A DNA stretch of 64,000 nucleotides, taken from Candidatus Poribacteria bacterium. GTDB taxonomy: Bacteria > Poribacteria > WGA-4E > WGA-3G. Shown here one piece after another: positions 8,821 through 59,858 of the stretch; the first letter of the stretch is position 1; each line of letters begins with the position of its first letter. Both the position numbers and the translations under genes were made by a program. Location of the stretch: positions 244,091 to 308,090 of the forward strand of contig CBDAUH010000002.1 in the NCBI GenBank assembly GCA_965200395.1. Direction: 5' to 3'. The notes below the pieces were generated by a model, which saw only the letters and a program-made list of their open reading frames with translations, had not been told where the DNA came from and made no database searches.

Positions 8821-8957
8821 GAAACTCCGTAGAAATTGTTAACGCAATTGCCACAACCGAGGGCAGATCTGTTCGATGCACAACCTGGAAAGGTTATGCT
8901 ACAAAGAGACACAACCTAGAAAGGTTGTGCTACAAAATATACTTCATAGAACTCACG

Positions 8958-11708
8958 TTACTTTCGTATCAACATTTTACGTGTAGCATTGAAATCGCCT
9001 GCGGTGAGTGCATAAAAATAGATGCCAGTTGCGATGTGTTCACCCTGCGCGTTTTTGCCATCCCAATAGGCAGCACGATGCCGAGCTTCATAAATCCCCG
9101 CAGGTTGCTCTCCTAACGCTAAAGTTCGGACCAACCTGCCATCCACCGCATAGATGTGTATCGTTACTTCTGTAGACTGCGCTAAGCGATAGGGTATCCA
9201 TGTCTCAGGATTAGATGGGTTCGGATAGTTTGCCAGAAGTGCCGTCTTTTTGGGCAACAGAGTAGCAAGCAGTTGTTCAAGCATCGCAATACCTCGCTGG
9301 AAGATTGCGGTTTTGTTTTCCAATTGCTTTGCTTCGTCAATCCAGCGTTGTAGATTTGCTGCTGTCAAAATAACTGTGGGAGCTGTGGGTTCCGTTGCTA
9401 AGGCTGCCATGACCAATGCTAAATCCTCAGCATTGACGATGCCATCACCGTTTATATCTGTATTTGGTATTGCGTCATCTGGTGGGGTTGTGCCGATAGT
9501 CGCAGCGACTAAGACAAGGTCTTCGACATCGACAACACCATCTCTGTTCACATCTTCCGCTATTTGTGTTCCATGCTCTATACCGATAGCAGAAAAAACC
9601 GCCCAGGATTCGATGCCTTTTCCGGTAGCACGGACGGTATTCCTTCCGGGTGTCCATCCTAGTATTAAGTGAGCTTGTGCTCTACCCTGAGCGTTAGTTG
9701 TGGCGGTTGAAGAGGTGAGTTGTCCGCTACCGGTTTCCACAGTAAAGGTGATCAGTACGTTTTTCATGGGCTCACCACTGGCATCTTGTGCCGTCACAAC
9801 GAAGGGAGCTGGAAGGACTGATCCTACAAAGTCTTCCTGGTTATTTCCAGAGACTGTGTAGAGTGCTGGATGGGCTGCATCATTATACTCTATTTTAATT
9901 CCTTTCGCCAGCATAGCAGGGATATGGGTGTTAATAGAAACGTAGCTCAGCGGATTATTCCAAAGCCTCAGCCCGCTACGCCACATTGTTCCTATAAGGT
10001 TTAACGCTAACAGAGGCGATACATCTGAAATGTTGTTGCTGTTAAGCTCCAGCTGAGTTAGGTTCGTCAATGCTGATAGCACAGATATATCTGATATGTT
10101 ATTGTCATCAAGATCCAACCAAGTCAGGTTTTTCAACTCTGGTAGCATAGATATATCTGATATGTTATTGTCGCCAAGCCCTAGCGAGATTAGGTTTGTT
10201 AATCCTGACAGCATAGATATGTCTGATATGTTATTGCTGCTGAGATACAGCTGAGTCAGGTTTGTCAATCCCGATAGCACGGATATATCTGATATGTTAT
10301 CACCCTCAAGATATAGGTAAGTCAGGTTTGTCAATCCTGATAGCACGGATATATCTGATATGTTATTACCGCCAAGATATAGGTAAGTCAGGTTTGTCAA
10401 TCCTGATAGCACGGATATATTTGATATGTCATTGCCATAAAGCTGCAGCCGAATCAATTGTGTCAACTCTGATAGCGCGGACACATCTGAAATGTTGTTG
10501 TCGGAAAGAGATAGGATTTCCAGTTGTTTCAACGTGGACAATGCGGACACATCTGAAATGTTGTTGCTGTCCAGAGTTAACCAAGCTAGGTTGGGAGCAT
10601 GTTCAAGACCGGTGAGGTTCGTTATTCTGCTCTTGGAAGCATTTAGGACATACAAGTTCAGCATAGTGTGCGTTGTGATACTTCCAATCTGTTCTTGCAC
10701 TGCTGCTGCTAAATTTATATCTGGAATTGAAATAGCCTCGGCAGGCGGTAGTAGATCAGTGACATCAATAGGAAAGCTCTGTACTGTCCCCTGTCCATGC
10801 ACGTCAAAAACGACAAGATATACAGTCTCAGTTTTTGTTGTTAAGGCATTTGTGACAAATTCGACGGTGGCACTTGTACGCCCGTTTAATGCTTTACAAC
10901 CGGTCAAAGCTCCTCTACGGAATCTATTAATATTCGAAGTGGGTATGAAAAGCTGTACCTGATGGAATCCGTCTGGATCGGTTATTCTAAAGCGAAGACG
11001 GATAGTGTTTGGTGGGGAGACGAGGCTTGGCGGCAGCATCTCGATAGTTGACGGTTCTGATCGTTCGTTGACGTGGTTTACGTTAGCATTGAAGTAGCGA
11101 TGAACATCTAAAAATTCAGCGGCACATGCAGACAGCTGTGATTGACCAGGTCCGTAAGACATGATATAGCGACCATGTCGGAAATCGTGCCTCAATCCGA
11201 AGGTATGTCCGAGTTCATGGGCAATGAGCTGCCAGTACCATTGGTAAATATATGCGCGACCACTGAATCTATTTCCTGTACCTTGCCCACCCGCATCGAA
11301 TGGAAGTTTCTCCTGTCCATGGGTATCTATCATATAGACAATGATACGTCGTTTGGGAAAGTCAATCTGTTCAGCAGTCTCTTCCTCCCAGTCAAAGTTG
11401 TCTAGGTAACGTGTGTATGGGGATTTTCCAACGACATGATGGACGATGGTGTTTCCGTGTGCGTCGGTTTCAATTTGGAAGGTTTTTCTGCCGTATCCTT
11501 GTCGTTCCATTTCATCGGCGAAGAAGAGTTGTGCTTTTTTGACGAGTGCCTCGATTTCTGCGTCTACGCCGGCGCGGGGTTCCGTATCACTTGCGCGAAA
11601 GTAGACGAGATGAACCATCGGTCGCGCATCTTGTGCCTGTGCGACATGTGTTATGAAAAGCAGTGGAATGAAACATGCAAGTCCAATTGAAAATAGTTTT
11701 CTATTCAT
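8958..11708 (-). CDS. secreted multidomain protein: signal peptide, metzincin zinc-protease (HExxHxxGxxHD), leucine-rich repeats, Ig-like domain, two dockerin-like Ca-binding repeats, T9SS C-terminal sorting domain
   Basis: Signal peptide MNRKLFSIGLACFIPLLFITHVAQA. Metzincin motif HELGHTFGLRHD. About 9 LRRs of the NNISDISxLSGLTNLTxLxL type. Dockerin repeats DVNRDGVVDVEDL and DINGDGIVNAED. C-terminus NYPNPSNPETWIPYRL...GIYFYALTAGDFNATRKMLIRK is a typical Por secretion tail. Confidence 0.8.
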   Translation of the reverse strand: MNRKLFSIGLACFIPLLFITHVAQAQDARPMVHLVYFRASDTEPRAGVDAEIEALVKKAQLFFADEMERQGYGRKTFQIETDAHGNTIVHHVVGKSPYTRYLDNFDWEEETAEQIDFPKRRIIVYMIDTHGQEKLPFDAGGQGTGNRFSGRAYIYQWYWQLIAHELGHTFGLRHDFRHGRYIMSYGPGQSQLSACAAEFLDVHRYFNANVNHVNERSEPSTIEMLPPSLVSPPNTIRLRFRITDPDGFHQVQLFIPTSNINRFRRGALTGCKALNGRTSATVEFVTNALTTKTETVYLVVFDVHGQGTVQSFPIDVTDLLPPAEAISIPDINLAAAVQEQIGSITTHTMLNLYVLNASKSRITNLTGLEHAPNLAWLTLDSNNISDVSALSTLKQLEILSLSDNNISDVSALSELTQLIRLQLYGNDISNISVLSGLTNLTYLYLGGNNISDISVLSGLTNLTYLYLEGDNISDISVLSGLTNLTQLYLSSNNISDISMLSGLTNLISLGLGDNNISDISMLPELKNLTWLDLDDNNISDISVLSALTNLTQLELNSNNISDVSPLLALNLIGTMWRSGLRLWNNPLSYVSINTHIPAMLAKGIKIEYNDAAHPALYTVSGNNQEDFVGSVLPAPFVVTAQDASGEPMKNVLITFTVETGSGQLTSSTATTNAQGRAQAHLILGWTPGRNTVRATGKGIESWAVFSAIGIEHGTQIAEDVNRDGVVDVEDLVLVAATIGTTPPDDAIPNTDINGDGIVNAEDLALVMAALATEPTAPTVILTAANLQRWIDEAKQLENKTAIFQRGIAMLEQLLATLLPKKTALLANYPNPSNPETWIPYRLAQSTEVTIHIYAVDGRLVRTLALGEQPAGIYEARHRAAYWDGKNAQGEHIATGIYFYALTAGDFNATRKMLIRK
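10000..10620. repeat. intragenic near-perfect tandem DNA repeats of about 66 bp encoding the LRR units
   Basis: The unit GTCAGGTTTGTCAATCCTGATAGCACGGATATATCTGATATGTTATT... recurs about 9 times with few substitutions. Confidence 0.8.
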
Positions 11709-11739
11709 AAATACTTCTCCACATTTCCAGGTTGCGTCC

Positions 11740-12365
11740 CCGATGCACAACCTAGAAAGGTTGGTTGTCAGAATCGCGGATTTTCTCGGATTACGCGGAT
11801 TTTCGCGGATTTCCTCTGCCGTAGTCTGTTTTATTTTGTATACCGTTTACTTATTATTCGTGTCCCATGATGCACAACCTAGAAAGGTTGTGCTACAAAG
11901 AACGTTGTCCCCGCTGCAAAACCTGGAAAGGTTATGCTACAAAGAAGCAAAAATAAAAAGGAGACGCTTACAAAATCAAAAAAACTATAGCACAAAACAA
12001 TCCGCGTCAATCCGTGTAATCCGCGAAAATCCGTGATTCTGACATTTGTAGACGTTTACTTCTTGTTTGTGTCCCTTGATGCCCAACCTGGATGAAGATT
12101 AACTTACTAATTGGGTAATTTCTTGGAGAAGCCGGTACGGTTAGGAAGCTGTACCTACAGGGCCTGGAGAATATCGAATTGCCCAAATATTTTCTTAAAC
12201 TTCATAAAGGTTGTGCTACGAATATCCTTTGTATTTCGGATGCCGGACTCACGTAATTGTACGTCTTTGCTTCGTTATTCTAAGGCGGATTTCATAAGAT
12301 ACAAAATTCATAGATGTTTATGGAACTCACATTATGGTATAATTCATCCTTTTCATTGGGAAGCG
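11740..12365. repeat. non-coding repeat cluster: MITE family M2 with embedded palindromic R1 hairpins (GCACAACC-N6-GGTTGTGC), plus R2 fragments
   Basis: Repeated units gatgcacaacctagaaaggttgtgctacaaag, and aatccgcg motifs. Segment 12190-12340 matches 21548-21720 in reverse orientation. Confidence 0.7.
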
Positions 12366-12371: not shown

Positions 12372-13712
12372 TTAAAACGGCAATAATGGCAATAATAACG
12401 AACATAATTCGCGCAATATAGGAGCAATCTCGTTATCCGGTTCTAGTTCCATCGCTTTGTCAAAGTCATTAGTAGCACTACTGTATTTTTTTATAGCGAC
12501 CTGTGCAATTCCACGATAGATGTAAGCAAAAGTATGATCCGGATTGAGTTCTATCGCTTTATCGAAGTCAGCAATTCCATCATGAAAATCATATATTTCC
12601 CGGCAGCGGATTTTAGCCCTTCCACGATAGTAATAAGTATCAGGTAAATAAGAGTTAATCTCAAGTTCTATCGCTTTGTCAAAGTCAGTAACCGCATCAC
12701 CATATTTTCCCCATTCGACCTTCGTTTTTCCACGATAGTAGTAGGTAAGAGCATCAAGAGAAATCTCTATTGCTTTATCAAAGTCGGCAACTGCTGCCTC
12801 GTATTGACCGAGGCTATATTTTATAGCCCCACGACTGCGGTAAAGGCGTGCAGAAGGGCTGAATTCTATTGCTTTATCATAGTCGGCAACTGCTGCCTCG
12901 TATTGACCGAGGCTATATTTTGCAAACCCACGATTGTTGTAAAGGTTTGCAGAAGGGTTGAATTCTATTGCTTTATCATAGTCGGCAATTGCTGCCTCGT
13001 ATTGACCGAGGCTATATTTTGCAAACCCACGATCGTCGTAAAGGTCTGCAGAAGGGCTGAATTCTATTGCTTTATCATAGTCGGCAACTGCTGCCTCATA
13101 TTGAGACAATCCTCGTTTTGCATCTGCTCGTGAGATGTAAGCAGATGTATACTCCACGTTTATGCTAATTGCATAAGTGTAGTGGGTAATTGCATCCTCA
13201 TATTGCGACTTCCTACTATGATTCTGTCCTGCTTCAAAGAGGGCTTCCGCAATATTTTCTCCAGATATATTTTGTAGACAATTCCAAAATTGATCCCATG
13301 TAATTTTGTTAAACTTGTTTTTTCCCAAATTCTCATAAAATGCCCAATTATCAACGTTTGTGCTATCAGCATAAATTCCTAAAGGCGTATCAGTTGCACA
13401 AAGATATGACTTTAACTGGTTGATACCGTCCTCAACATATTCTAAACCTTCGCGTTTGCATTCGACAATGAAATCCAGTGAATCTACGCCGAGAACAATA
13501 TCAGATCTGCGTTTGTCTGATCCCATCTGAATTTCATATTCTGTTTCTATAAAAAAGTTGCGTAATATCGGTGAGAAGTAATTGATGACATTTTCTACTA
13601 CTTTTGCTTCATGTGGAGCATCTTGATGGCATTCAGGACACAATTTAAAGTCAGGTTCACGTGGCTGAGAATGTGCATGTTGGTGACAAAATACTTCGTT
13701 CAAGTTTTTCAT
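12372..13712 (-). CDS. fusion protein: N-terminal Zn-ribbon, HsdR-N-like PD-(D/E)XK nuclease domain, and about 7 C-terminal TPR repeats
   Basis: CHQHAH...CPECH. DIVLGVDSLDFIVECKREG...QLKSYL...LGIYADSTNVDNWAFY follows the HSDR_N pattern (D...ExK...Q..Y...G...W.FY). Repeated GQYEAAVADYDKAIEFSPSA TPR units. Confidence 0.6.
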   Translation of the reverse strand: MKNLNEVFCHQHAHSQPREPDFKLCPECHQDAPHEAKVVENVINYFSPILRNFFIETEYEIQMGSDKRRSDIVLGVDSLDFIVECKREGLEYVEDGINQLKSYLCATDTPLGIYADSTNVDNWAFYENLGKNKFNKITWDQFWNCLQNISGENIAEALFEAGQNHSRKSQYEDAITHYTYAISINVEYTSAYISRADAKRGLSQYEAAVADYDKAIEFSPSADLYDDRGFAKYSLGQYEAAIADYDKAIEFNPSANLYNNRGFAKYSLGQYEAAVADYDKAIEFSPSARLYRSRGAIKYSLGQYEAAVADFDKAIEISLDALTYYYRGKTKVEWGKYGDAVTDFDKAIELEINSYLPDTYYYRGRAKIRCREIYDFHDGIADFDKAIELNPDHTFAYIYRGIAQVAIKKYSSATNDFDKAMELEPDNEIAPILRELCSLLLPLLPF

Positions 13713-14250
13713 ATATGTTAGAGTCTACAATGATATTTTCTTGTTCAGGAGGTTTTGATTTATATTTTACAGAGTCTGCCATGACGAGGCAAAAAATGCA
13801 AGTGCAATACAGAGCTATTCAATTGTCGCGGACTTAGCGTCCTCCACAATTCTGACAAAGATAATCCGGGGAATGCCTAAGTGGCATTCATACCTTTGAT
13901 TTAGCGTAATCCGCGATTCAGAAAAGATCACGCAAGAAGACACAGAACTCTTAAAATCCGCGTAATCCGCGATTCAGACGAGTTCTTTGTAGCATAACCT
14001 TTCTATGTTGTGCCTCTTTGTAGCATAACCTTTCTATGTTGTGCTTTTCCAATCCTGAAAAAAATCAGCCACCCCTATCCTACGAAAAAACACCTCAAAA
14101 CAAAAAACTCTTAAAATCCGCGTAATCCGCGTAATCCGCGTAATCCGCGATTCTGACAAACAAAAATCCGCGTCCAAAATAGACTTTCGAATGCCTCTAT
14201 TGCTTACCTCACTTAGGTTGACAGGGAAGAAAGCTTTGCAGTTAGGTTTC
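13713..14250. repeat. composite repeat region: R2 element (aatccgcgt 9-bp tandem sub-repeats, palindrome GGAATGCCTAAGTGGCATTC) plus 2 R1 hairpins. The first ~290 bp recur as a direct repeat at 14793-15140
   Basis: 13716-13905 is near-identical to 14795-14985; 14101-14200 is near-identical to 15045-15140. Confidence 0.75.
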
Positions 14251-21493: not shown

Positions 21494-21790
21494 CGGGATA
21501 AAGGGGGGTAAGACCTCGAAAGTAACGAAAAATACAGGATAAAATACATAAAAAACGTGAGTTCCATAAACATTTATGAATTTTGTATCTTATGAAATTC
21601 GCCTTAGCATAGCGAAGCAAAGACGGACAATTCCGTGAGTTCGGTGTCCGAAATACGAAGGATATTTGTAGCACAACCTGTCTAGGTTGTGCATCCTACA
21701 AAAAATGGTTTATTTCCAAACTCACGTTAAAAAACAAAATTCTAAACAAGAACACACAAATTTGCGTCCGTCCTACAGAAATTAGGATGT
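21494..21790. repeat. right half of the MITE M1 into which IS copies A/B inserted. It itself carries a nested M2 MITE (TIR AACGTGAGTTCCATAAACAT ... ATTTCCAAACTCACGTT with an internal R1 hairpin)
   Basis: Sequence matches M1 at 21987-22116 except for a ~170-bp insert bounded by inverted repeats. Confidence 0.6.
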
Positions 21791-28614: not shown

Positions 28615-29541
28615 TCACCGCATCTTACCGTCCTTGAATCTTGCAATAGCACCACGTTCAGCAAGCTCTGCCTTCGCATAATGTGCAGGCATTTGAGAAG
28701 ATTTCCACCGCCCCGCCACCTGCATATCAACAACAGTCGCCCCCGCAGCAGCAAGCGACATCGCTGAGCCCACACGCAGCGAATGCCCAGAAATAAAACC
28801 ATCCACTCCCGCATCTGATGCACGTTTTTGAATAATACGTCGCGCAGAATGATCGTGCAGCCTATTTAACTGAATATGTCCACCGCGAGGTATCTGTCGA
28901 AACAACGCGCCGTCATCAATACCACTCCCCTCAAGATATTTTGACATGATGCTGCGTGTCCTATCACATACGTAAAGACTATCGCCGCGTCCCTCTTGGT
29001 CAGATTTGGAACCTTGCACCGTAAACGTCGTCCCTTTAAAGTCTTCCACATTCGCAGCCACCACTTCACTGATACGCAACAGACAATCACTCATTAGTCG
29101 AATCATTGCAGCATCACGTAAACCCGCGAGGGTACCATCGGTTTCAGCCTGAATGCAGACACGTTCCACATCTTGCCAAATCAGTCCATCCACCTGTCCA
29201 CGCCCTCTCTGTTTTCCATTTCTACGGATTCCTGCCAACGTTGCGTGCGTAATCGGCATGGCAAAATCCGCACCGTCCTGATGTTTCAACTGCCATTTCA
29301 CAGCAGCGACCACCTGTGAAATCGTTGATGGTGATTTCCCATTTTCATGGAGCTCTGTCAAGTACGTAGCGAGCATGCCATCCGACAACGTCTCACCTGG
29401 AGGTTTCCAATCTTCAAACCTTTGCAGCGCATGTTGGTATGCCTTCTTCGTATTCTCTGATATGCTGGAATGAATTAGGTTTTTGATTTTCGGGCGAAGT
29501 TTATCTAGTGACGATTCCCGTTTCTCAAGAGCGTTTTGCAT
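28615..29541 (-). CDS. tyrosine-type site-specific recombinase/integrase (phage integrase family)
   Basis: C-terminal HSLRVGSAMSLAAAG...AGRWKSSQMPAHYAK carries the catalytic R..H-x-x-R...Y. Start MQNALEK at 29541; the longer ORF-track version runs through the tRNA. Confidence 0.75.
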   Translation of the reverse strand: MQNALEKRESSLDKLRPKIKNLIHSSISENTKKAYQHALQRFEDWKPPGETLSDGMLATYLTELHENGKSPSTISQVVAAVKWQLKHQDGADFAMPITHATLAGIRRNGKQRGRGQVDGLIWQDVERVCIQAETDGTLAGLRDAAMIRLMSDCLLRISEVVAANVEDFKGTTFTVQGSKSDQEGRGDSLYVCDRTRSIMSKYLEGSGIDDGALFRQIPRGGHIQLNRLHDHSARRIIQKRASDAGVDGFISGHSLRVGSAMSLAAAGATVVDMQVAGRWKSSQMPAHYAKAELAERGAIARFKDGKMR

Positions 29542-29659
29542 ATTAATCCTCAAATGACATTTAGGTGTTTTGGATAACAGTTGCAGAATTGTGAAAACAC
29601 AAGCTGACAGAACAGCACCAGAAAAGAGGGTGATGTTCCTACTCCGAACAGCAATAAAA

Positions 29660-29736
<77 letters not shown>

Positions 29737-29940
29737 ACCTGACTTATCTATAAATGATAACACATAACCACTTTAAAAGCAAGTATTTTTTTAGTTCGCG
29801 CTTCTATTTCATCTTGACTTTTTCAATCTGCAAATATATAATTCCACTATGACACAAGAATATCAGTATAGTCAATTTACTAGGAATATCAAGAAAGACT
29901 CGCCTGTACACAACGAATTCATCACATAGGCATTTAAAAG

Positions 29941-31341
29941 ATGTTAACCAAAGCCGATATTGAACGTGAAAAATTAAGACACAATACATCGTTCTTCAGG
30001 GCAATCCTTGCACCGACAAATGAGGAGCGACAACTGCTTTTTACGCTAAAAAACATCGGCAAGTTACCGGATGATTTTGATGGCGATTTGTTTATCCCAT
30101 TACTTAATCACGCCAATGCAAAGATTCGATGTCTTGCCATAAAAAATGTTGGAAAGTTAAAAGACGAACGTTTTTTAACGAACCTCATTAAATTTGCGGA
30201 AACAGAGAAAAATACACTTGCACGGCGCGAAGCTGTTTCGGCAATCGGTAGACTCAAAACCGAAAACGCTATTCCGATTTTAACACGGTTTACTACCGAT
30301 ACTGATCCGAAGGTTGTATTGCAGGCGGTACGGGGTTTGCTTTATTTTAAAAGACATCGAGAAACGCAAATAGTATTAACATCGCTTGCTGAACATCCGA
30401 ATGAATTGATACAGGAACAGATAGCAAGAGAACTACAACAACATGACTACACAGATTCTTCTAAAACACTAAACCATCCAGCTAGTCCAGACACGCTTAA
30501 AAATGTAATGGTATATGCCGATGTTCAAGATGTGTTAAAAGTTATTCCGGATGAATCTATTCATTTGACTTTTACTTCACCACCTTATTACAATGCCCGT
30601 GATTATACCATTTTCCCGAGTTATGAGGCGTATCTTGATTTTCTAACATCAGTTTTCAAAGAGACGCATCGTATTACAAAAGAGGGTAGATTCTTTGTAC
30701 TAAACACGTCACCTGTTATTGTGCCACGTATTAGTCGCGCCCATTCCAGCAAACGATATGCAATTCCATACGATATTCATCCACGGCTAACAGAAATTGG
30801 TTGGGAATTTATTGATGACATTATATGGATGAAACCTGAATACGCTGCAAAGAATCGAAACGGTGGTTTTTTCCAACATCGTAAACCGCTTGGATACAAA
30901 GCAAACTCTATCACTGAAAGTGTGATGGTGTATCGTAAGAAAACAGACAAACTCATTGATTGGAATCTCCGTCAGTATGAAGAGGATATTATTAACACGA
31001 GCAAAGTGATGGGTGAATATGAAAAAACTAATGTTTGGCAAATAAATCCGGCAACAGATAAAGTTCATCCCGCAATTTTTCCACATGAATTAGCTTCCCG
31101 TATCATTCAGTATTACTCATTTAAAGGTGATCTCGTCTTTGACCCATTTGGTGGAAGCGGTACTGTCGGACATGTCGCTCTGCTACATGAAAGATATTTT
31201 TTTCTCTGTGAAAAGATGGAAGAATACGTTGAGCGTGCCAAACAAGCACTTGATACAGCACTATTTTCTGGTATAAACCCTCGTATATTTTCACTTACTG
31301 AATTAAGTTCACGCATAGCAGAGGAGTCACAAAAACCATGA
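29941..31341 (+). CDS. DNA methyltransferase (beta-class N4/N6, PF01555-like; SPPY then FDPFGGSGT) with an N-terminal HEAT/PBS-lyase-like repeat domain
   Basis: HLTFTSPPYYNARDY (motif IV) precedes DLVFDPFGGSGTVGHVA (motif I). The first ~170 aa carry repeated ...IRCLAIKNVGKL.../...RREAVSAIGRL.../...VVLQAVRGL... helices. Confidence 0.7.
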   Translation: MLTKADIEREKLRHNTSFFRAILAPTNEERQLLFTLKNIGKLPDDFDGDLFIPLLNHANAKIRCLAIKNVGKLKDERFLTNLIKFAETEKNTLARREAVSAIGRLKTENAIPILTRFTTDTDPKVVLQAVRGLLYFKRHRETQIVLTSLAEHPNELIQEQIARELQQHDYTDSSKTLNHPASPDTLKNVMVYADVQDVLKVIPDESIHLTFTSPPYYNARDYTIFPSYEAYLDFLTSVFKETHRITKEGRFFVLNTSPVIVPRISRAHSSKRYAIPYDIHPRLTEIGWEFIDDIIWMKPEYAAKNRNGGFFQHRKPLGYKANSITESVMVYRKKTDKLIDWNLRQYEEDIINTSKVMGEYEKTNVWQINPATDKVHPAIFPHELASRIIQYYSFKGDLVFDPFGGSGTVGHVALLHERYFFLCEKMEEYVERAKQALDTALFSGINPRIFSLTELSSRIAEESQKP

Positions 31342-32321
31342 CTGTTACTGGCGGAGTAATTAAGAACATTATCCGAAAACTTTTTGCTGGAGCGGATTAT
31401 CGTTCCGAAGTGCTGGCATTGATTAACGCTGAATTCTTGCAATATGCTGTCGATTTTTTCAAACGTGTAGCTTGTGCAAAGCTGGATAATCAATCTGTAA
31501 CAGTTGACTGGTACAAAAAGGAATTCCTCAATTCAGATTCATATCGACCCGAAGAAATTGCTATTCACTCAGGACTGAACAAGAAAACAATTACAAATGC
31601 ATATAGTTCTGCCCGGAAACAAATAGTGTTGGAAGTATCCCTTGAACATTATAATTCACTTTATAACGCTATTAACAGTTTGACCGAACAAGATGAGCTT
31701 GATATTGCCCTAACATTAAAATTTAGAGATGTTAGTGTTGATTTAAATATTAATGAAAGTTTGATTGTCATCAATACTCTCGCCGTCAAACGCTCTGCAC
31801 TCCGTGGAGCATTATGGAGTACATCAGGAAAACAGGTAGAAAAACCTTTGATGATAACACTTTGTGCCCTTTTTCAAGTCCCAATAAAATATTTTGATCA
31901 GAGGAACCTACCAGAATCTGAACGCGAATCCGATTTTTATCTTTTTGACGAAACAGGGAAAGATTATCCTTGTGAAGTAAAATTAATGGGAAAAGGGAAT
32001 CCCGAAAGTGCTGACGCAGTATTCGCTCGCGGGGGTCGCGTCCTTGTTGCTAACAAACTTTCTGAGACTAATAAACAACAGATGGACAAAGATGGTATCC
32101 TTTGGGTTGAACTTCAAACTGTAGACGGTTATAAGAGATTTGAACATGTGCTAAAGGCATTGTCAATCCCTTGTAAACCTTTTGCCGGTGATCTCGAAAC
32201 TGCGTTAGACAAAATTTTATCCATTATTCTTTCTGATGATGTACAGAATTCTGTAACTCCTGAGATAGTTTTACAAGAGACCTTACTTAAAGACTCAGAA
32301 TTATTGATTGAATTTGAATGA
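31338..32321 (+). CDS. putative Type II restriction endonuclease partner (candidate PD-(D/E)XK: FD-x9-EVK)
   Basis: ATGA overlap with the MTase stop. Motif FYLFDETGKDYPCEVKLMGKG. No other recognisable family. Confidence 0.4.
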   Translation: MTVTGGVIKNIIRKLFAGADYRSEVLALINAEFLQYAVDFFKRVACAKLDNQSVTVDWYKKEFLNSDSYRPEEIAIHSGLNKKTITNAYSSARKQIVLEVSLEHYNSLYNAINSLTEQDELDIALTLKFRDVSVDLNINESLIVINTLAVKRSALRGALWSTSGKQVEKPLMITLCALFQVPIKYFDQRNLPESERESDFYLFDETGKDYPCEVKLMGKGNPESADAVFARGGRVLVANKLSETNKQQMDKDGILWVELQTVDGYKRFEHVLKALSIPCKPFAGDLETALDKILSIILSDDVQNSVTPEIVLQETLLKDSELLIEFE

Positions 32322-34542: not shown

Positions 34543-37500
34543 ATGAATTTTCAAAGACACTGTGACCAATATCTACAGACAATAAACGAAACACGATCCG
34601 ACCCGAATGCAACCCCTGAACTCTCTTTGCTGCCACATTTACAAGCATTCCTGCAAAAGGTTCCCGTTGAACATTTTGCCTGTCCCAACAACAGCCCCAA
34701 AATAAGATTCACACTGGAACCCAGAACAATCAACCAGATCGGACGACCGGACATCATCGCAACAGATGGATTGTTACCTATCGGCTATATTGAAGCGGAG
34801 GAATACGGCACAGACCTAAACAACCTAACAGGACACGCCGCACAACAGAACAAACGTTTTAAGGAAAACCTTGATAACTTTATCCTTACCAATTTTATTG
34901 ATTTTCAGCTGTGGGTAGATGGGAAATGTAACACAACAGCGCGAATTACAGACAACACCGATGATTTAGCGATATTATTAGAACGATTCCTGAACGCATC
35001 TATCCAAATCGGCACACCGGAAGCACTCGCAAAATACCTTGCAAGACGGACACGAGAACTCCAAACACAGATTACCGCAACGCTTAACGACCAAAACAGC
35101 GAAACCTATCAGTTGTATAAGGCATTCAGAGAAACACATCTCTTTACACTAACACCCAGAGATTTTGCTGACATGTACGCACAAACGCTCTCTTACGGAC
35201 TATTCGCCGCACGCTGCACCTTACCGAATGAAACCTATTTCCTACGACAAACCGCTGCTGAGACACTACCAGAATCCAATCCATTCCTAAAAGACCTTTT
35301 TTATCAGATTGCATCTCCAAAACTCACGAAAAACATTAAATTTATTCTGGATGACATCGCAAGACTATTACGTAACGTTCCAACAGAAATGCTCCAAACG
35401 TCATTAGCACCTACAGATGACTTTGAAGACCATGTTATCCATTTCTATGAACCATTCCTAAAAGAATATAATTCAAAACTCAAGATCGATCGCGGCGTAT
35501 TCTACACACCGCGCCAGGTAATCTCTTACATCGTACGTTCTGTGGACGCACTGCTCAAATCGGAACTCAACAGACCCGACGGACTCGCAGATGACAACAC
35601 CCTCATCCTTGACCCCGCAACAGGCACAGGTGGATTCCTGCTGTCCGTGCTTGACCACATCCGAGAATACGTTACCGACAATTATGGAACAGGAGAGTGG
35701 CAGCAATATGTCAACGAGCAATTAGTCAAACGCATTTTCGGATTTGAACTACTTGTCGCTCCCTATACAATTGTACATCTCAAGTTGAGTCAATTCTTAC
35801 AAGAGCATGGATGGCACGACAATGAACGTCTCCGTATCTATCTCACTAATACATTAGAACAACCCGCAGAGACAGTGGAGACACAACCCTTTGCACCGTT
35901 TCTCTCTGACGAAGCAAACGAAGCACTCTCTGTGAAACGGGACGACCCTATCCTCGTCATCCTCGGCAATCCACCCTATCCAGAGGATTCTGCCAACCCA
36001 AGTCGTGATAGTAATAGAGAGTTAACTTTCATTGGAAAACTTATTGAAGATTACAAACAGTTAGATGGAGAATCGCTTGATGATAGGAATTTAAAAATGC
36101 TTCAGTCAGATTATGTAAAATTCACTCGGTGGGCACAGTGGCGTATTGATAGAAACGGTGAAGGTGTTATTGGCTATATTGTTAACAATAGTTTTCTTGA
36201 CGGTCGAGCCTTTCGCGGGATGCGGCAGAGTCTAATGAAAAGTTTCAACACTGTTTACATACTCAATTTACACGGTAGCATCAGAAGACACGAAGCAGTA
36301 CCAGAAGGTCAGAGAGATGAAAATGTTTTTGACATTTCACAAGGGGTTTGCATCTTGTTGTGTGTCAAAAAACGCGACAATCGTGCCTTGTCAAAGGTGT
36401 ATCATGCGGATATATGGGGATCGCGGCAGGAAAGATATAATTTGCTTTTGCAGACCGATGTTCAAACCACACAATGGTGTGAACTACAACCGGCATTACC
36501 ACTTTGTCTTTTTGTGCCGCAAACTGCAGAATATAGCACTGAATACGAAGCAGGTTGGAGTATTAACGACATCTTTCATACAGGTTCGGTTGGAATGGCT
36601 ACTGGTCGGGATAGATTGACGATTCATTGGACTGCTGGAGGTATCCGTGAAACTGTGAACGACTTTATTTCACTTTCTCCAGACGAAGCACGGGAACAGT
36701 ATAATTTGGGAAGGGATACTCATCATTGGCAGATTCCCCGCGCTCAGGCAGATCTTCGTAATAACCCAAATGTTGAACAACACGTAACGACAATTCGCTA
36801 CCGTCCGTTTGACACACGCTGGACCTATTACACAGGACAGACAGGTTTCCACTCACGCCCAAACTATGATATTATACGACATTTACACGGTGTTGAAAAT
36901 ATTGCTCTCTGTGTCTGTCGTATTGTGACAAGTTCTGTTTGGAATCATGTTTTGATAACTGACAAAGTAACTGAAAAGAGTTATATTTCAAACAGAGGAA
37001 GTGAATCCACCCACGTATTCCCACTTTACCTATATACTGATTCAGAGGGATTATTAGGTGCAACAGAACGCGAACTGAATTTCAAACATGCTTTTCTCAC
37101 CGCACTCGCTGAGTCATTGGAATTACCACAGACTCCCCCGTTTGGCCTTCCCGAAGGCATCACACCAGAGCAGATTCTCGCTTATATTTATGCGGTGTTG
37201 AATAGTGCCAAATATCGTGAACGATACTATGAATTTCTGAAATACGATTTCCCGCGTATCCCTTTACTGCAGGATATTGACGAATTCTGCGTACTTGCAG
37301 AGTATGGACAAGAATTAATTGATTTACATCTCTTGAAGGACAGGAACATACCGCATCGTCATTTATTTGAGGGTGAAGGAGATGGTATCGTCTCAAAACT
37401 TCGTTATGAAGATGGCAATGTCTGGATCAACAGCACACAGCATTTTACGAATGTACCCCAGAAGTGTGGGAATATGAGATCGGAGCATATCAGGTGTGTG

Positions 37501-37626
37501 AGAAATGGTTGAAGGATAGGAAGGGCAAAGAACTAAGTCGTGATGATCTCAGACAGTATCGTTCTATTTTGGTTGCTGTTGCAGAGACGCTGCGAGTGAT
37601 GGCGGAGATTGATTGGGTGCTGTAGT
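34543..37626 (+). CDS. MmeI-like Type IIG restriction-modification enzyme (N-terminal nuclease-like domain, gamma-class N6-adenine MTase, C-terminal specificity domain); apparent -1 frameshift near 37460 (CCCC run)
   Basis: Motif I LILDPATGTGGFL and motif IV ILGNPPY. After the in-frame stop at 37510-37512 the +1 frame continues as EVWEYEIGAYQVCEKWLKDRKGKELSRDDLRQYRSILVAVAETLRVMAEIDWVL, the conserved Type IIG/ISP C-terminal module. Confidence 0.7.
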
Positions 37627-39676: not shown

Positions 39677-40993
39677 AGGGTTATTTAGTTTTATAGATAT
39701 TCATTTTATCAAGTTAACTGTGAGTAAAGGTTTTGATGCATATTCCTTTATTTTATCAGCGATCCGTGTTATGCCTTGAAAACGGAATACGGATAATGCG
39801 GTATTTCGTAAAGCGGCCATGACTTGTGGAATAGCCCCGCATCTGACAGGTGATGCGTCCTCGCCGAGTAGCACATCGCGCATCCAATGCGACTTGTTCT
39901 CTATTGCCCAATGGCCTCTCCGTAAAGCAAGTAAGCGTTCTGCGGATGCCTCACTCGGTTTCAGGCTCGTAATCCCATAGGTAGTGCGGGTTGTCTCTTC
40001 TCCTGTCTTCATATTTTTGGAAGTATAGCAATATTGGATCACTTGTGCTACGCCCGGCCAATCCAGATATGCGTTGAGACTTGTGCTTGCCTTGATACAT
40101 CGCGTCTCAAGTCTGCCATGCGACTTTTCAATCGTCTCATGCATGTATATCGGTTTCCCTAAAGTAGGGTGTGTTGTGTCTTCAGAAACCGCGTCAGGCA
40201 CGCCTTGAAAAAGTTTTTCAATCGCTTCTAACAGGTCCGGTTGATTGCCTTTAACAGGCAGCATATAGTCGCCCCCGCTGTTTATGATTCCGTGGCAGAA
40301 AGAGCGTTGTGTCAAAAGGGCATCCGTTGTGATAACTTTGCCTGCTACATCAAACGCTTTGAGGATTTCCGTTGATACCGGTATTTCATTGGTTTTGTCG
40401 CTGACACCTCGCTGCGTGAGGGTGATCCCTAACTCATGAGAGACGACGGAGAGTAAATGGCTGATCATCGCACCACTTTTTTTAGACGCACGCAGGGTTT
40501 TGCCATCTATAGCGACTGCGTCGGAACACCCCCGCAAATCAGGGCACTCTGCTAATGCGGCGTTTACCCATTTTGACAGGATGTTTTCTAATGCCTCAAC
40601 GTCCAACTTTTTCAACAGATTATGGATAGTTGCGGCACAAGGCGTTTTGTGATGTGTGAACCCGAGTGCTTTTGTGAGTGCGGGCTGTGAGCGTGCCCAG
40701 GTAGCGATGGATGTATACCCTTTATGCCCGCACATCAATCCAACGACTAAAAGTGCGAGGATTGCTTTCAACGGGTGTCGTTTCCCTTTTTCCTTGCGTG
40801 GGTCTGTAAGTTCTGCTAACATATCCATTAAGTGGCAGGACTTTTTTCTTGTCATTCTTCACCTCAAAAGATCGTAAGTTTTTAAGGTGAAGTATAGCAG
40901 ATATACCATGAAAAATCACGGTATATCTGCACATCCTAAAATATTAACGATTGTGATAAAAAACAACTAAAATACATAAAACTAAATAACCCT
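39677..40993 (-). mobile_element. ISAs1-family insertion sequence inside an R2 repeat; IRs GGGTTATTTAGTTTTAT; 11-bp TSD ATCCGGTGAAT
   Basis: Inverted repeats at 39678-39694 and 40976-40992. ATCCGGTGAAT at 39666-39676 and 40994-41004. The flanks rejoin to a normal R2 sequence. Confidence 0.8.
39701..40855 (-). CDS. ISAs1-family transposase (H-repeat-associated protein type)
   Basis: ...LALRRGHWAIENKSHWMRDVLLGED... is the ISAs1 signature. N-terminal DDE_Tnp_1_assoc-like region. Confidence 0.8.
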   Translation of the reverse strand: MTRKKSCHLMDMLAELTDPRKEKGKRHPLKAILALLVVGLMCGHKGYTSIATWARSQPALTKALGFTHHKTPCAATIHNLLKKLDVEALENILSKWVNAALAECPDLRGCSDAVAIDGKTLRASKKSGAMISHLLSVVSHELGITLTQRGVSDKTNEIPVSTEILKAFDVAGKVITTDALLTQRSFCHGIINSGGDYMLPVKGNQPDLLEAIEKLFQGVPDAVSEDTTHPTLGKPIYMHETIEKSHGRLETRCIKASTSLNAYLDWPGVAQVIQYCYTSKNMKTGEETTRTTYGITSLKPSEASAERLLALRRGHWAIENKSHWMRDVLLGEDASPVRCGAIPQVMAALRNTALSVFRFQGITRIADKIKEYASKPLLTVNLIK

Positions 40994-45376: not shown

Positions 45377-46711
45377 CACTTACCCCCATTTTTGTATGCG
45401 GTATGTGTAGGCGTGTGTGTGTATAGAAATAAGTTGGAAAGTCTGATGGGTTATGGTAGAATACCTCCATATAAACCAATGTCGGTGAAAAACCGGCAGG
45501 GAGGTATTCTTATGAAATATACCCTTAGCTGGGTACATCCCAGAAAGATTATAACAGGTTTTCGTAAAGTTTTCAACGGGATTTGTATCAAAAAACCGAC
45601 GCTCCGCAACTTTTATTTGATGCTACAGGCTGTGTGTGTAGCCCCGAGTTTTCGTATTCAATCGATTGCCTCACATCTACCTATCCGTGTGAAACACGAC
45701 AAGTCTAAGCAAAAGCGTGTGTTGCGGTTTATTGATACCTATTTTCCGGTTGCAGCGGTGAAGGGTGCTTGGTTGTCACATATAGTTGTCAGTGTGTGTC
45801 GTTCTGTGGGGATGCAGCATCTGCTTGTGCTGATAGACGAGACAGATTTACCGGGCGGATGGAAGGCGATTGTTGCAGCCCTTCCGTTTCGCAATCGTGC
45901 GATCCCGCTCTATTGGGTTCTGTATAAAAATGAGATGCTCAAAGATGGCACCTATCAAGGACATAACGATTTAGTTCAGCAGTTCTGTTGTGATGTCCAT
46001 AGTCGCGTTGTTAAAGTGTTAGGGGATAGTCGGGAGCCTGTGTTGGTTTTTGACAGAGGGTTCGCCCGAGCGAGAGCGATCCTCAAGTTTTTTGAGGGGC
46101 AAGGCATCTGCTACTTGATGCGTGTGCCACGCAATGTTGGTGTGCGTATAGCAGGCAACAAGCAGTGCCTTGAAGAAGTGGCAAATGGTTTTTACCCACA
46201 AGTGCTTTATCACTACACGGAGCAGGTGCCTGTGGCACTCTATGTTGGGGGACAGCACACCAAGAAAGACCCGTTATATCTTATCTCCAATCGGCTTCAG
46301 GGGAACCCCCTGCGAACTTGCTACAAGCGGCGGACACAGATTGAACACGGGTTCAGAGACTTGAAAACGAACTTCGGTTTCAAAGCACTCGTTTTGAGAA
46401 AGAACGAACAGCCCCGGATGGAAGTTCTGTTTTTGTTGGCAGTCGTGGCTTATGGTTTGGCGTTCCTGTGTTATGAAAAAGCTGCGGACAGATGGGCAAA
46501 AACTTTACACCCTACGCGGAAAGTTTACTCCGTGATCAGTGTCATCAACCGTATGATCCGCGAGGTGTGGACGCAGGAGGCGTTGCTCTTGTTCACCGAG
46601 AGGACTTGTTTGAGAGATATAAACTTTCTCACCGCAGAAGAACTGACATGACAACATTGGAAACCTATGAACACAACTACACACGCATTCAAAAAAAAAT
46701 GGGGGTAAGTG
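45377..46711 (+). mobile_element. IS4-family insertion sequence, copy D (1335 bp)
   Basis: Identical to copies A-C. Confidence 0.85.
45512..46651 (+). CDS. IS4-family DDE transposase (copy D)
   Basis: Identical to copy A except one substitution (GVCIKK to GICIKK). Confidence 0.8.
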   Translation: MKYTLSWVHPRKIITGFRKVFNGICIKKPTLRNFYLMLQAVCVAPSFRIQSIASHLPIRVKHDKSKQKRVLRFIDTYFPVAAVKGAWLSHIVVSVCRSVGMQHLLVLIDETDLPGGWKAIVAALPFRNRAIPLYWVLYKNEMLKDGTYQGHNDLVQQFCCDVHSRVVKVLGDSREPVLVFDRGFARARAILKFFEGQGICYLMRVPRNVGVRIAGNKQCLEEVANGFYPQVLYHYTEQVPVALYVGGQHTKKDPLYLISNRLQGNPLRTCYKRRTQIEHGFRDLKTNFGFKALVLRKNEQPRMEVLFLLAVVAYGLAFLCYEKAADRWAKTLHPTRKVYSVISVINRMIREVWTQEALLLFTERTCLRDINFLTAEELT

Positions 46712-48623: not shown

Positions 48624-49463
48624 TTAAAATGGTGGTGGTTTAGAATCTTTAGGTTCTGCATCTGTGGTATACTCGGTTTCCGGATCTTCTGATTCTTCGA
48701 CCGTAGGTACTTCACTTTCCTGATTCGCAGTGGTTAATTGCTTAATGCGGTTGCAAAGTTCTTCAAACATTTTGGGTGTTGTTTCAGCGGCTTTGAGTTC
48801 AGCGGAAAGTTGTGTCCACTGTTGTTCAGACATGTCGTTTCGGGATTCTACGCTGTATTTTCGTTTGATGTAATTCCAGAGATCTCCTTTACTTATGTCC
48901 TTTTCTTGGAGTGGTTCAGATAATTGGTTTGCAATAGCGAATGCTGCCTTCTGTGCATTTGAGATATTGTCACCGGTGGACTGCGGTATCTGCTGTTGTT
49001 TAGGGTTGTTGCCATCTACTTTACGTTTCAGATAGAAATTTAACACATCACGAATAACCGGGACAGGAAGTAACTGTTTAATTGCGTTTCGTTGTGCTTT
49101 ATGTATTGCTTTTGTGAATGCATAGGGATCAGGGCGATTTCCGTTCATCTTCGGCTGCTCGTATGCCCCCCATCGTGAATTGCCTGTAATTGTATCTACT
49201 GCTTTGACAGTGGCGATCCAAGAATTCTCACGTTCTTCATATTCCATCTCTTCTACTTGAATACCGCCTCTTCGGTTCGCAGCTTCGTTGATACCCGCCA
49301 ACGTCAATCCTTCGATAACTCGGCCTCCGACTTTGAAAGAGTATACGTAATCCTGTATTGTCTGTCCAGTCATCAGTTCAACTATTGCTTGATCGTCAAC
49401 TTGATCAACGACTTCATATTCAGCGGCTACAGGTACTATTTCACTGTTTTTTTCTTCAGACAT
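48624..49463 (-). CDS. hypothetical protein with an acidic C-terminal tail
   Basis: ORF; probable start MSEEKNSE. Confidence 0.35.
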   Translation of the reverse strand: MSEEKNSEIVPVAAEYEVVDQVDDQAIVELMTGQTIQDYVYSFKVGGRVIEGLTLAGINEAANRRGGIQVEEMEYEERENSWIATVKAVDTITGNSRWGAYEQPKMNGNRPDPYAFTKAIHKAQRNAIKQLLPVPVIRDVLNFYLKRKVDGNNPKQQQIPQSTGDNISNAQKAAFAIANQLSEPLQEKDISKGDLWNYIKRKYSVESRNDMSEQQWTQLSAELKAAETTPKMFEELCNRIKQLTTANQESEVPTVEESEDPETEYTTDAEPKDSKPPPF

Positions 49464-49501
49464 TGTTCTCTCCGTATATATATATTTGATACTATAGGAT
49501 A

Positions 49502-51065
49502 CTATAGTTTGGACATTTTTGGTCTTGTTATAGATTATGAATAGTTGGCAGCATTTCCCCGTTAGCACTTCTGAACAGGTGTTAGAACTGCTGCTAACGC
49601 CCCTTTTTTGTCTAAATTCTGTTAGAAATCACTGTTTTTTAGCCATCATTTTTCCAATAATCGTGAAAATAGTTGCTGCTGAACCATTTTCACATAGTAT
49701 CTTCGGGATTTTCAGTTTTTTCTGTGCGTTTTTCCCCGGGTCGTAACTCGTATAAAAATAGTTTTGTTGTAAACGTCGCTGCAAGTAAGCGGTCATCAAG
49801 CCGCGTGTGAGATGTTTCGGTTTATACCAGTGTATATTGAGTGTGGATAGCACGTCTTCTAAATCAAGAGAAACCTTGTCTGTGTCTGTGTCTGCGGGTG
49901 TCTTAGGCAATGGCGACGGACTGAAAGCGAGTTGTGTCAGCGTTGCTGCGGTGAAACTGAGTTGAGCGAACCGATCCAAACTTTTCCTGTCTCGGAGTTG
50001 ATAGGTGTCAAATCCGAAGTTTTCTTTAGCGTCCCGAAAGGCAGTTTCAATCTGCCACCGGTTTCTATAGTGTCGGATAACTGTTTCTACGGGCAGTCGT
50101 AAATCTGAAGTAAATACACAAAAATACCGATAGGGTTTAGACTTTTTCAAGCGTTTGCGTATCACAACGATGCGGACATCCACAGGACACATCTTTGTTC
50201 GCACGACTTTATCAGCGACAGAAAGTGTCTGATCCTCAACAACGATGTCTGTATACTTCAGGTGTGGAATAGACACACGGCTACCATACCGACGGGGTCT
50301 GCCTCTCTTGAGACGCTTAGGGCGTTTCGGTATATCAAAAAACGCTGCGTTTGACTTCGCACGACAAAGTAAATGATGTCCTTGTGAGAGTATCTCCGTG
50401 AACACTTTGCGTCTATTGAAGCCTCTATCAAAAACGATAAGACCCGGTGGCACAAGATTACATAAATGCTTCAGCACAGCGAGGCTATTTGCGTCCTCGC
50501 TTTTCGGTTCCATCATCCGTGTGGCTAATGGAAACAGGCGCGTGCCTTCGGGCGTTTCTGCCAGCCACCCAATCGCACCGAACTCGTGTCCGTGATGAAA
50601 CTTGGATTGGTTCTTGTTACGTGGCTGATACGCAGGGTTCCTGCGGAAATGCAAACCCGCTTGTTTTGAACCGCTACTTAGGGCATGTGTTTCATCATAG
50701 ACGTATACGCCCGTGGGGTAAGCGGATAGCACTTGATGGCTTAGCGTAGTGGCGACTTGATCCACACACCAGACACCACGTGAAAGAAACTTTGGCAGAG
50801 ACCAATACCGACCTGCTTGGGCTGTCGCAAGATAGATTTGTGTCATTGTGCCTCGGTAGGGCGTATTTATCAGACCTTTCACGAAAGTTTGAAAGTGATT
50901 GAAGTTGTTGTGCTTGAATAACGATCTGAATTGTGATAACATGTTGTCCAGGTAGGAAAGTGGGGTCATTAGACATACCCTTTCAAAAAGGTTTATATTT
51001 TCTAAAAGGATACCCGCTTTCCTGCTTTATGTCTATAAAAAAAACAAAAAATGTCCAAACTATAG
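49502..51065 (-). mobile_element. IS701/IS4-like insertion sequence, copy 1 (IRs CTATAGTTTGGACA)
   Basis: Terminal inverted repeats at 49502-49515 and 51052-51065. Confidence 0.8.
49629..50969 (-). CDS. IS701/IS4-like DDE transposase (446 aa)
   Basis: ...HYRNRWQIETAFRDAKENFGFD... W-x-IE-x-FR-x-K signature. Confidence 0.75.
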   Translation of the reverse strand: MTPLSYLDNMLSQFRSLFKHNNFNHFQTFVKGLINTPYRGTMTQIYLATAQAGRYWSLPKFLSRGVWCVDQVATTLSHQVLSAYPTGVYVYDETHALSSGSKQAGLHFRRNPAYQPRNKNQSKFHHGHEFGAIGWLAETPEGTRLFPLATRMMEPKSEDANSLAVLKHLCNLVPPGLIVFDRGFNRRKVFTEILSQGHHLLCRAKSNAAFFDIPKRPKRLKRGRPRRYGSRVSIPHLKYTDIVVEDQTLSVADKVVRTKMCPVDVRIVVIRKRLKKSKPYRYFCVFTSDLRLPVETVIRHYRNRWQIETAFRDAKENFGFDTYQLRDRKSLDRFAQLSFTAATLTQLAFSPSPLPKTPADTDTDKVSLDLEDVLSTLNIHWYKPKHLTRGLMTAYLQRRLQQNYFYTSYDPGKNAQKKLKIPKILCENGSAATIFTIIGKMMAKKQ

Positions 51066-56530: not shown

Positions 56531-56641
56531 CATAACCTTTCCAGGTTGTGCCTCGTATACGCAGCTTGTAGCACAAAAATGTAATACTACAGTCATTAGA
56601 TATGACGAAGGGTAGGCATAATGCCTACCCTTTAGAAAGGA

Positions 56642-56757: not shown

Positions 56758-56824
56758 AAAGATATACATAATTATTTGACAACTGAATAGCGTGTGAGGA
56801 ATCGGTAGAGAAAAATAAGTTATC

Positions 56825-59858
<3,034 letters not shown>

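Follow-up and report, generated by a model that had tools for sequence, protein, structure and literature searches.

The window analysed here is a 64,000-nucleotide stretch of Candidatus Poribacteria DNA (contig CBDAUH010000002.1, positions 244,091 to 308,090), and our subject is a complete gene on its minus strand (8958-11708) that encodes a 916-residue modular secreted metalloprotease, recognized from its open reading frame (ORF), its domain matches and full-length homologs at 44-61% identity. A single long ORF spans 8958-11750, with the stop codon at 8958-8960. The start of the 916-residue product was assigned to the ATG at 11708, because a Shine-Dalgarno sequence read directly from the DNA (GGAG, 11717-11720, minus strand) lies 8 nt upstream and the homologs start at an equivalent MNRK or MQVK. 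From the N-terminus, the protein comprises a Sec signal peptide, a metzincin catalytic domain, a beta-sandwich, a leucine-rich repeat (LRR) domain, a Big_1 domain, a dockerin, a helical linker and a sorting tail. The metzincin, LRR, Ig-like, dockerin and type IX secretion system (T9SS) tail modules named in a preliminary description of the locus are all present, beyond chance, in Pfam and NCBIfam matches.

The signal peptide (residues 1-25; 11634-11708, minus strand) shows the MNRK start, a hydrophobic core and an AQA/QD cut; it was called by eye and agrees with a modelled helix at residues 3-27. The surrounding residues A25, Q26, D27, R29 and P30 are conserved among homologs, with cleavage predicted between A25 and Q26, and inspection of the signal peptide revealed no lipobox.

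The catalytic module and its closest relatives

The catalytic domain (residues ~30-210; 11079-11621, minus strand) is a metzincin of the OgpA/AMUC_1438 type that lacks a prodomain. Its zinc-binding motif, HELGHTFGLRHD, occupies residues 164-175 (11184-11219, minus strand) and contains H164, E165, H168, H174 and D175, the first four of which are invariant across 42 aligned homologs. The candidate Met-turn, M183 in the sequence YIMSY (11160-11162, minus strand), was identified by conservation and lies 9 residues past the third histidine; M183 is at least 90% conserved in 13 same-length homologs, and a methionine occurs within 14 residues in 72 of 134 members of the wider family. A beta-sandwich (residues ~218-315; 10764-11057, minus strand), the equivalent of the C-terminal domain of OgpA, packs on the catalytic domain and carries the highly conserved sequence MLPPSLxSPPNxIRLRF.

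An AlphaFold2 model of residues 1-330, calculated from the alignment with the 42 homologs (pLDDT 88.5, pTM 0.85), comprises the signal helix at residues 3-27, an alpha/beta domain at ~32-205 and the beta-sandwich at 221-313. The module displays the five-stranded sheet and active-site helix that define the metzincin fold, as well as the two-domain arrangement of OgpA and AMUC_1438, in which the catalytic domain and the C-terminal beta-sandwich form a groove. The first beta-strand begins at residue 32, only 6 residues beyond the predicted signal cleavage, leaving no room for a prodomain or cysteine switch; both are absent because the catalytic domain begins directly after the signal peptide.

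Sequence comparisons point to the same relatives. In a single-sequence phmmer search of the Protein Data Bank (PDB), OgpA (4.7e-9) and AMUC_1438 (1e-6) were the only significant matches, and a 12-sequence profile of the module found them at 6e-14 and 4e-12, respectively, covering the whole catalytic domain (profile positions 7-163). Snake-venom reprolysins, ADAMTS-1 and an astacin reached only 3e-3 to 7e-3 with the same profile. Over both domains, the OgpA family exceeds reprolysin by about ten orders of magnitude in the profile comparison and by nearly twofold in structural Z score. The Pfam model Reprolysin_5 does score 31.1 against a cutoff of 27, with the match confined to residues 152-180 (29 residues around HExxH), while Reprolysin_2, Reprolysin_3 and Reprolysin_4 lie at or under their cutoffs and span 16-41 residues.

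In the phmmer alignment, W157 is matched with W199 of the OgpA glycan pocket, and an aromatic residue is found 4-9 positions ahead of HExxH, the region of OgpA W199, in 122 of the 134 family representatives. The conserved Y101 adjoins the position of OgpA Y114/Y116 in poorly aligned loops, and an invariant tyrosine, Y185, stands just past the Met-turn; in the profile alignment, where the loops align poorly, OgpA F166 has no clear counterpart in the module.

OgpA pairs a metzincin catalytic domain with a beta-sandwich, the substrate groove running between the two; it is not a proenzyme, cuts only N-terminal to O-glycosylated Ser/Thr, and was suggested to found a new peptidase family, closest to M12 among those already classified (PMC7518263). 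AMUC_1438 is 19% identical to OgpA and shares its fold; it depends strictly on Tn, is likewise not a proenzyme, places Y171 and Y217 in its aromatic pocket, and has only ~30 residues assignable to PF12044 (PMC9513282). On the basis of the same weak and fragmentary Pfam pattern, the missing prodomain, the invariant zinc ligands and glutamate, and the matches in both fold and sequence, the module is placed in the OgpA/AMUC_1438 family. The term 'reprolysin/adamalysin-like' used in the preliminary description holds at the superfamily level and fails as a family assignment.

The same description had considered the domain combination rare, which is wrong, as the family is large, expanded, shuffled and tandemly duplicated. 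A homolog search returned 6621 matches at E ≤ 1e-5. Among the best 120 of these, on which our architecture counts are based, nearly all combine LRR, Big_1, dockerin and FlgD_ig matches and many also match PF12044 or PF13688; HELGHxFGLxHD occurs in about 100, almost all terminate in TRKM(L/V)IxK, and one carries the name Candidatus Poribacteria. Two placements of the protease module occur in these 120 proteins, close to the N-terminus or at about residue 650-800. On its own the module forms 1675 clusters at 50% identity (E ≤ 1e-3), or 660 at E ≤ 1e-30, in proteins of 250-2790 residues.

In a scan of one genome per species, full-length relatives were confined to Candidatus Poribacteria metagenome-assembled genomes (MAGs) and a few unlabelled MAGs, with closed chromosomes included; the complete Poribacteria chromosomes found were OZ242354.1, OY282374.1, OY764016.1, OZ243938.1, OZ246960.1 and OZ242310.1. 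The last ~100 residues alone matched proteins from Bacteroidota, Zixibacteria, Marinimicrobia, Gemmatimonadota, Ignavibacteria, Calditrichia, Cloacimonadota and KSB1 in the same scan. Synteny with the window is absent for the closest homologs of equal length (57-61% identity), where two family members stand in tandem, flanked by ABC_tran and CbiQ genes. Some family members come from MAGs with bin names that suggest sponge metagenomes. The family is an expanded, shuffled and tandemly duplicated one, found full-length here only in Poribacteria.

Accessory domains, the C-terminal tail and candidate export components

The LRR domain (residues ~328-610; 9879-10727, minus strand) comprises an N-cap, about nine 22-residue repeats and a C-cap, and is supported by Pfam matches to LRR_4 (E = 2e-34), LRR_8 and LRR_EndoS; the underlying DNA has a 66-bp period with 7.3 copies at 77% identity. 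Its earlier description as internalin-like is justified for the repeats (E = 1e-46) and does not extend to the NCBIfam internalin models as such, for which scores of 158, 154 and 122 bits compare with cutoffs of 1600, 1050 and 1275. The Ig-like domain that follows (residues ~612-705; 9594-9875, minus strand) is confirmed as Ig-like, as Big_1 (PF02369, 38 bits against 34.9) and not as the Big_2 expected at first. Next comes a type I dockerin (residues ~716-772; 9393-9563, minus strand) that scores 39.7 bits against the PF00404 (Dockerin_1) gathering cutoff of 22.9. Its two 12-residue calcium loops, DVNRDGVVDVED and DINGDGIVNAED, are intact, and D719, N721, D723 and D730 in one and D751, N753, D755, N759 and D762 in the other are invariant in the family. 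A helical linker (residues ~780-820; 9249-9371, minus strand; LQRWIDEAKQ...LEQLLATLLP) with conserved W789, G806, I807 and L814 leads to the tail. Taken alone, the dockerin-linker-tail cassette (residues ~715-916) finds other poribacterial proteins and, more weakly, proteins of Gemmatimonadota and Caldithrix (loci L042 and L054).

The C-terminal sorting domain (residues ~822-916; 8961-9245, minus strand) has the type A CTD/FlgD_ig fold, with the signature NYPNPSNPET...GIYFY...TRKMLIRK. The T9SS tail that the preliminary description had anticipated is borne out by TIGR04183, the NCBIfam model proposed for checking it, which gives 32.8 bits (cutoff 23) over residues 828-914, as well as by FlgD_ig in Pfam (36.5 against 27). 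Solved structures related to the tail by sequence are FlgD Ig domains only. End to end, it is 41-49% identical to the tails of eight lineages of the Fibrobacteres-Chlorobi-Bacteroidetes (FCB) group, among them Bacteroidota, Cytophagia, Zixibacteria, Marinimicrobia, Calditrichia, Ignavibacteria and KSB1. Poribacterial and FCB tails have in common NYPNPxNPxT, WxG, GxYFY and a terminal (R/K)KM(L/V)(L/I)xK, and the matching FCB tails include two (L047 and L074) whose gene clusters hold bona fide PorV/PorQ genes. The window tail and the type A tails of the FCB group are solidly supported as homologs.

Two peculiarities of the poribacterial tails were also observed. A 5-residue insert (ARHRA, SRSRA or DKEKA) stands ahead of YWDG, in the window copy at residues ~869-873 (9090-9104) and also in loci L022 and L034, and none of the aligned FCB tails has it. 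In addition, the window tail has a serine in place of the otherwise invariant phenylalanine of NYPNPFNP.

The tail is carried by proteins of very different content. Among 66 tail-bearing ORFs in Poribacteria loci, dockerin-like loops are present in 29 and the zinc motif in 6. A set of 48 tail-bearing ORFs lacks both the zinc motif and LRRs, and TIGR04183 recognizes 44 of these (E ≤ 1e-3). Glycosidases, S8 and S9 peptidases, and beta-propellers of the TolB-like and PQQ types are among the passengers of this set. Since many diverse passenger ORFs carry it, the tail is a general sorting tag of the phylum. TIGR04183 tails had already been noted on poribacterial eukaryote-like proteins by Kamke et al. 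(2014; PMC3909097), beyond which our literature search on Poribacteria with T9SS, dockerin/cohesin or glycoproteases returned nothing substantive. In the NCBI taxonomy, Poribacteria stand outside the FCB group.

Elsewhere in the window (52695-53537, minus strand), a conserved 280-residue ORF encodes a FadL-superfamily barrel of the outer membrane whose N-terminal motif is PorV/PorQ-like. It has 14 strands and the N-terminal plug of the FadL type, in a fold comparison that does not discriminate between FadL, PorV, TodX and BamG. The preliminary description had cited this barrel as PorP/SprF-like, a label that has to be dropped, as no PorP/SprF match was found in Pfam, even at E ≤ 10, or in NCBIfam; the only Pfam match is a sub-threshold one to UPF0164. 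The best NCBIfam match is PorV2 (4.6e-12, 45.5 bits against a cutoff of 325), and the PorV/PorQ model NF033709 gives 39.6 bits, below its cutoff of 90, over residues 46-76 only. All NCBIfam matches are confined to ~35 N-terminal residues, whereas true FCB PorV/PorQ proteins score 195-252 bits. A hidden Markov model of the barrel retrieves bona fide FCB PorV/PorQ proteins at 1e-11 to 9e-5, through an N-terminal GARAxxMGxAxxAxxDDAxAxxWNPAGL. The barrel is conserved in close relatives, several of them Candidatus Poribacteria, and is annotated as hypothetical in every named homolog; the window shares the gene order barrel, TP_methylase, 3HCDH, GFO_IDH with a Poribacteria chromosome. We regard it as a possible but unproven partner of the sorting tail.

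Further genes near tail-bearing or PorV-like genes were compared. In at least seven Poribacteria loci, FGE-sulfatase lipoproteins (lipobox LFGC) directly adjoin tail-bearing cargo genes (L084:6890-7981 and L082:3886-4977; also L021, L033, L013, L027 and L022). GldK/PorK is their best NCBIfam match, but they were rejected as such, with 165 bits against a cutoff of 350 and no gldLMN downstream. No similarity was seen between the window ORF at 48624-49568 and the ORF that follows the PorV-like gene of L081. In FCB loci, the bona fide PorV/PorQ genes (L047:9488-10540, L074:10898-11956 and L041:15128-16294) share a conserved cluster with a tail-bearing cargo gene. Members of this cluster are a TonB-dependent-receptor-like gene, whose identity was confirmed for L074 and L041, and, in L047 and L074, an unannotated ORF of ~1050 residues; the arrangement is not obviously the classical porU-porV pair. 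The ~1000-residue ORFs upstream of these PorV/PorQ genes were considered as PorU and discarded, the upstream one of L041 being TonB-dependent-receptor-like and the adjacent ones of L074 and L047 having no family match.

Surroundings of the gene in the window

A terminator-like hairpin (8909-8930, minus strand) lies just 3' of the stop codon and is the same element as one copy of a dispersed palindrome, ACAACCTTTCTAGGTTGT, of the repetitive extragenic palindromic (REP) type. With up to 2 mismatches, this palindrome has 10 copies in the window, against 0 expected, at 8880-8928, 11747-11764, 11874-11891, 13994-14042, 21673-21690, 56532-56549 and 63318-63366. All copies are intergenic, several are paired 31 bp apart, and the protease gene has copies on both flanks.

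The gene immediately upstream of the protease (12372-13712, minus strand) encodes another 'eukaryote-like' repeat protein, of 446 residues, whose nuclease-like N-terminus (HSDR_N_2) precedes many near-identical tetratricopeptide repeat units. The region is rich in insertion sequences (IS), with at least four DDE transposase ORFs of the IS4/IS701 type (39701-40855, 45392-46651, 49629-50969 and 51095-52372), two of them in tandem directly beside the barrel gene; NCBIfam indicates up to six IS4-like members. Two restriction-modification systems are present (29941-32321 and 34543-37512), one in which a fusion of an N6_N4 methylase with HEAT repeats precedes a CfrBI-like endonuclease, and the other consisting of a 989-residue type ISP enzyme. 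The 5' end of a 382-residue ORF with a GTG start (28615-29763, minus strand) overlaps tRNA-Ala(GGC) (29661-29736, minus strand), which makes a start farther downstream probable for this ORF. Finally, 23S and 5S rRNA genes with an upstream tRNA-Ala(TGC) occupy 56642-60022 on the minus strand; the remaining 4 kb of the window contain no 16S gene, as if the 16S gene of this rRNA operon were unlinked.

Proposed function and comparison with known systems

The protein is most likely a surface-displayed, O-glycoprotein-directed metalloprotease exported by a CTD-dependent route, a reading to which we assign a probability of roughly 0.6. Following Sec export and folding in the periplasm, the tail would be recognized for passage through the outer membrane and attachment to the surface, by analogy with T9SS type A cargo. 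The tail end would then lie nearest the membrane and the protease outermost, on a stalk formed by the LRR, Ig-like and dockerin domains, with the LRR domain, and possibly the dockerin, binding a partner macromolecule. Cleavage would take place in the groove between the two domains of the protease module, most likely beside O-glycosylated Ser/Thr if OgpA and AMUC_1438 are a guide, and the bacterium would in this way process mucin-like glycoproteins of a host (such as the sponge matrix) or of particles. The earlier proposal of a secreted, probably surface-displayed modular zinc protease, plausibly acting on host or matrix macromolecules, is supported by our analysis.

Several observations weigh against this proposal, some concerning specificity and others the export route. 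Identity to OgpA is just 18-19%, and of the OgpA pocket (Y116, F166, K198/W199 and N235/Y236) only the W199 position aligns directly, the remaining residues sitting in loops that align poorly in the profile alignment. The geometry of the Met-turn and groove is putative, and we infer O-glycan dependence from fold and family alone. The suggested link to sponges comes from the bin names of relatives and not from the source organism itself. No cohesin partner turned up, though no systematic cohesin search was made. For the tail, Pfam Por_Secre_tail (PF18962), the second model proposed in the preliminary description, scores 23.8, just under its gathering score of 27. No core T9SS gene (SprA, PorU, PorZ or GldKLMN) was found among the window ORFs examined, with one of the NCBIfam scans covering the 25 most-shared families. 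SprA and PorU are larger than 700 residues. The protease (916 residues) and the type ISP enzyme (989 residues) are the only window ORFs above this size, so no other ORF of the window fits either protein. In the 48 poribacterial tail-bearing ORFs, PorU and PorZ gave tail-level matches only (best 1.7e-9 and 4e-7), and the rest of the ~0.9 Mb of Poribacteria loci, queried with PorV-like and FGE-sulfatase proteins only, yielded no core T9SS gene. A search of complete Poribacteria chromosomes revealed no T9SS operon near the PorV-like gene, where only housekeeping synteny was found, plus two adjacent cargo genes in L081. In keeping with this, Kamke et al. found no Por structural genes in six incomplete single-cell genomes and left the secretion pathway to be revealed (PMC3909097).

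Of the alternatives, a glycan-independent protease directed at the extracellular matrix in general (collagen, for example), tethered to the surface and with its OgpA-like fold reflecting ancestry but not specificity, is unlikely but the likeliest. The lack of clear conservation in the OgpA pocket would accord with it, as would the short spacing of the Met-turn (9 residues past the third histidine, against 16 in OgpA) and the fact that the specificities of AMUC_1438 and OgpA already differ. On the other hand, both characterized members of the fold family strictly need an O-glycan (PMC7518263, PMC9513282), and the poribacterial proteins retain the groove-forming beta-sandwich, with its highly conserved MLPPSLxSPPNxIRLRF, and in 122 of 134 representatives an aromatic residue in the W199 region. 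The preliminary description had instead suggested an M12B reprolysin/adamalysin-like 'eukaryote-like effector' that would leave the cell through a canonical T9SS of the FCB type, the window itself supplying a PorP/SprF barrel. Against this reading, the reprolysin match is restricted to residues 152-180, OgpA is far superior over both domains by profile and by Z score, a prodomain or cysteine switch is missing, the barrel is without a PorP/SprF match, and the single-cell genome survey found no Por structural genes (PMC3909097). M12B membership is largely refuted, and the scenario as a whole is highly improbable.

We also consider it very doubtful that the protease belongs to a cellulosome-like complex, in which the dockerin would plug it into a cohesin-bearing surface scaffold. 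The above-cutoff Dockerin_1 match with both calcium loops intact and invariant is as this model would have it, and the dockerin module is common to many enzymes, given that 29 of the 66 poribacterial tail-bearing ORFs have dockerin-like loops. Yet no cohesin was found (in the absence of a systematic search), the literature search gave no substantive link between Poribacteria and dockerin or cohesin, and the dockerin-tail cassette also matches proteins of Gemmatimonadota and Caldithrix; moreover, the dockerin directly precedes the protein's own sorting and anchoring tail, so anchoring to a scaffold would be redundant.

A more far-reaching extension of the O-glycoprotease reading is tentative, with rather less than an even chance of being correct: export and anchoring of the poribacterial tail proteins would fall to a machine that has diverged strongly or is of another kind, and the family would be an expanded arsenal of OgpA-type glycoproteases displayed by it. 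The idea comes from the highly conserved type A tail that a large and diverse set of exported proteins carries in a phylum apart from FCB and lacking reported T9SS genes. The minimal, phylum-conserved 280-residue FadL/PorV-like barrel and the GldK-like FGE-sulfatase lipoproteins may be parts of it. If true, this machine would display the glycoproteases for the processing of host glycoproteins.

The analysis provides a concrete biochemical hypothesis, O-glycoprotein-directed proteolysis, for one expanded 'eukaryote-like' LRR family of Poribacteria, where such families have until now been discussed only as possible host-interaction factors. The OgpA/AMUC_1438 glycopeptidase family is extended to a new phylum and a new fusion architecture, which may be of interest for glycoproteomics enzymes with new specificities; as far as the literature searched shows, the glycoprotease assignment is unpublished for Poribacteria. 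The question raised in 2014, of how Poribacteria recognize Por-type tails when Por genes had not been found in them, is sharpened: the tails are, by their sequences, true and constrained homologs of FCB tails, two candidate components can be named, and closed Poribacteria chromosomes make the question testable.

Among known systems, the protease module is closest to the Akkermansia muciniphila O-glycopeptidases OgpA (Amuc_1119; PDB 6Z2D/6Z2O) and AMUC_1438 (PDB 8DEK/8DF2), which form a metzincin family outside the MEROPS classification. Apart from its wider Met-turn spacing, OgpA differs from the window protein in an insertion of ~17 residues that precedes the active-site helix. It has no fused modules and AMUC_1438 bears a CBM51-like one, whereas the window module is fused to LRR, Big_1, dockerin and tail; published homologs are from Verrucomicrobiota, Planctomycetota and Bacteroidota, whereas the window protein is poribacterial. 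With reprolysin/adamalysin M12B proteases (ADAMs, ADAMTS and snake-venom metalloproteinases), the module shares the metzincin fold and HExxHxxGxxHD, including the aspartate, but it has no full-length model match and neither prodomain nor cysteine switch. M12B is its nearest classified family, as noted for OgpA too (PMC7518263).

In its ends, the protein resembles T9SS type A cargo of the FCB group, with an N-terminal Sec signal, a tail of ~90 residues with PNP, GxYFY and a terminal K-x-x-K, and a hydrolase passenger. Gingipains and secreted hydrolases of Bacteroidota are examples of such cargo. The window tail differs in being preceded by a dockerin and helical linker and in its 5-residue insert before YWDG, and its host phylum lies outside FCB and is without reported T9SS structural genes. 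Listeria internalins similarly place an Ig-like domain after 22-residue LRRs, a likeness at the level of the repeats only, and the window protein is without the usual Gram-positive wall anchors (LPXTG and GW). The nearest precedent is provided by the poribacterial eukaryote-like proteins of Kamke et al. (PMC3909097), from the same phylum, with LRRs, a signal peptide and a Por-type tail, and raising the same secretion question; to these, the present analysis adds the metalloprotease module and its relation to OgpA, the dockerin cassette and the FadL/PorV-like barrel candidate, none of which that study contains.

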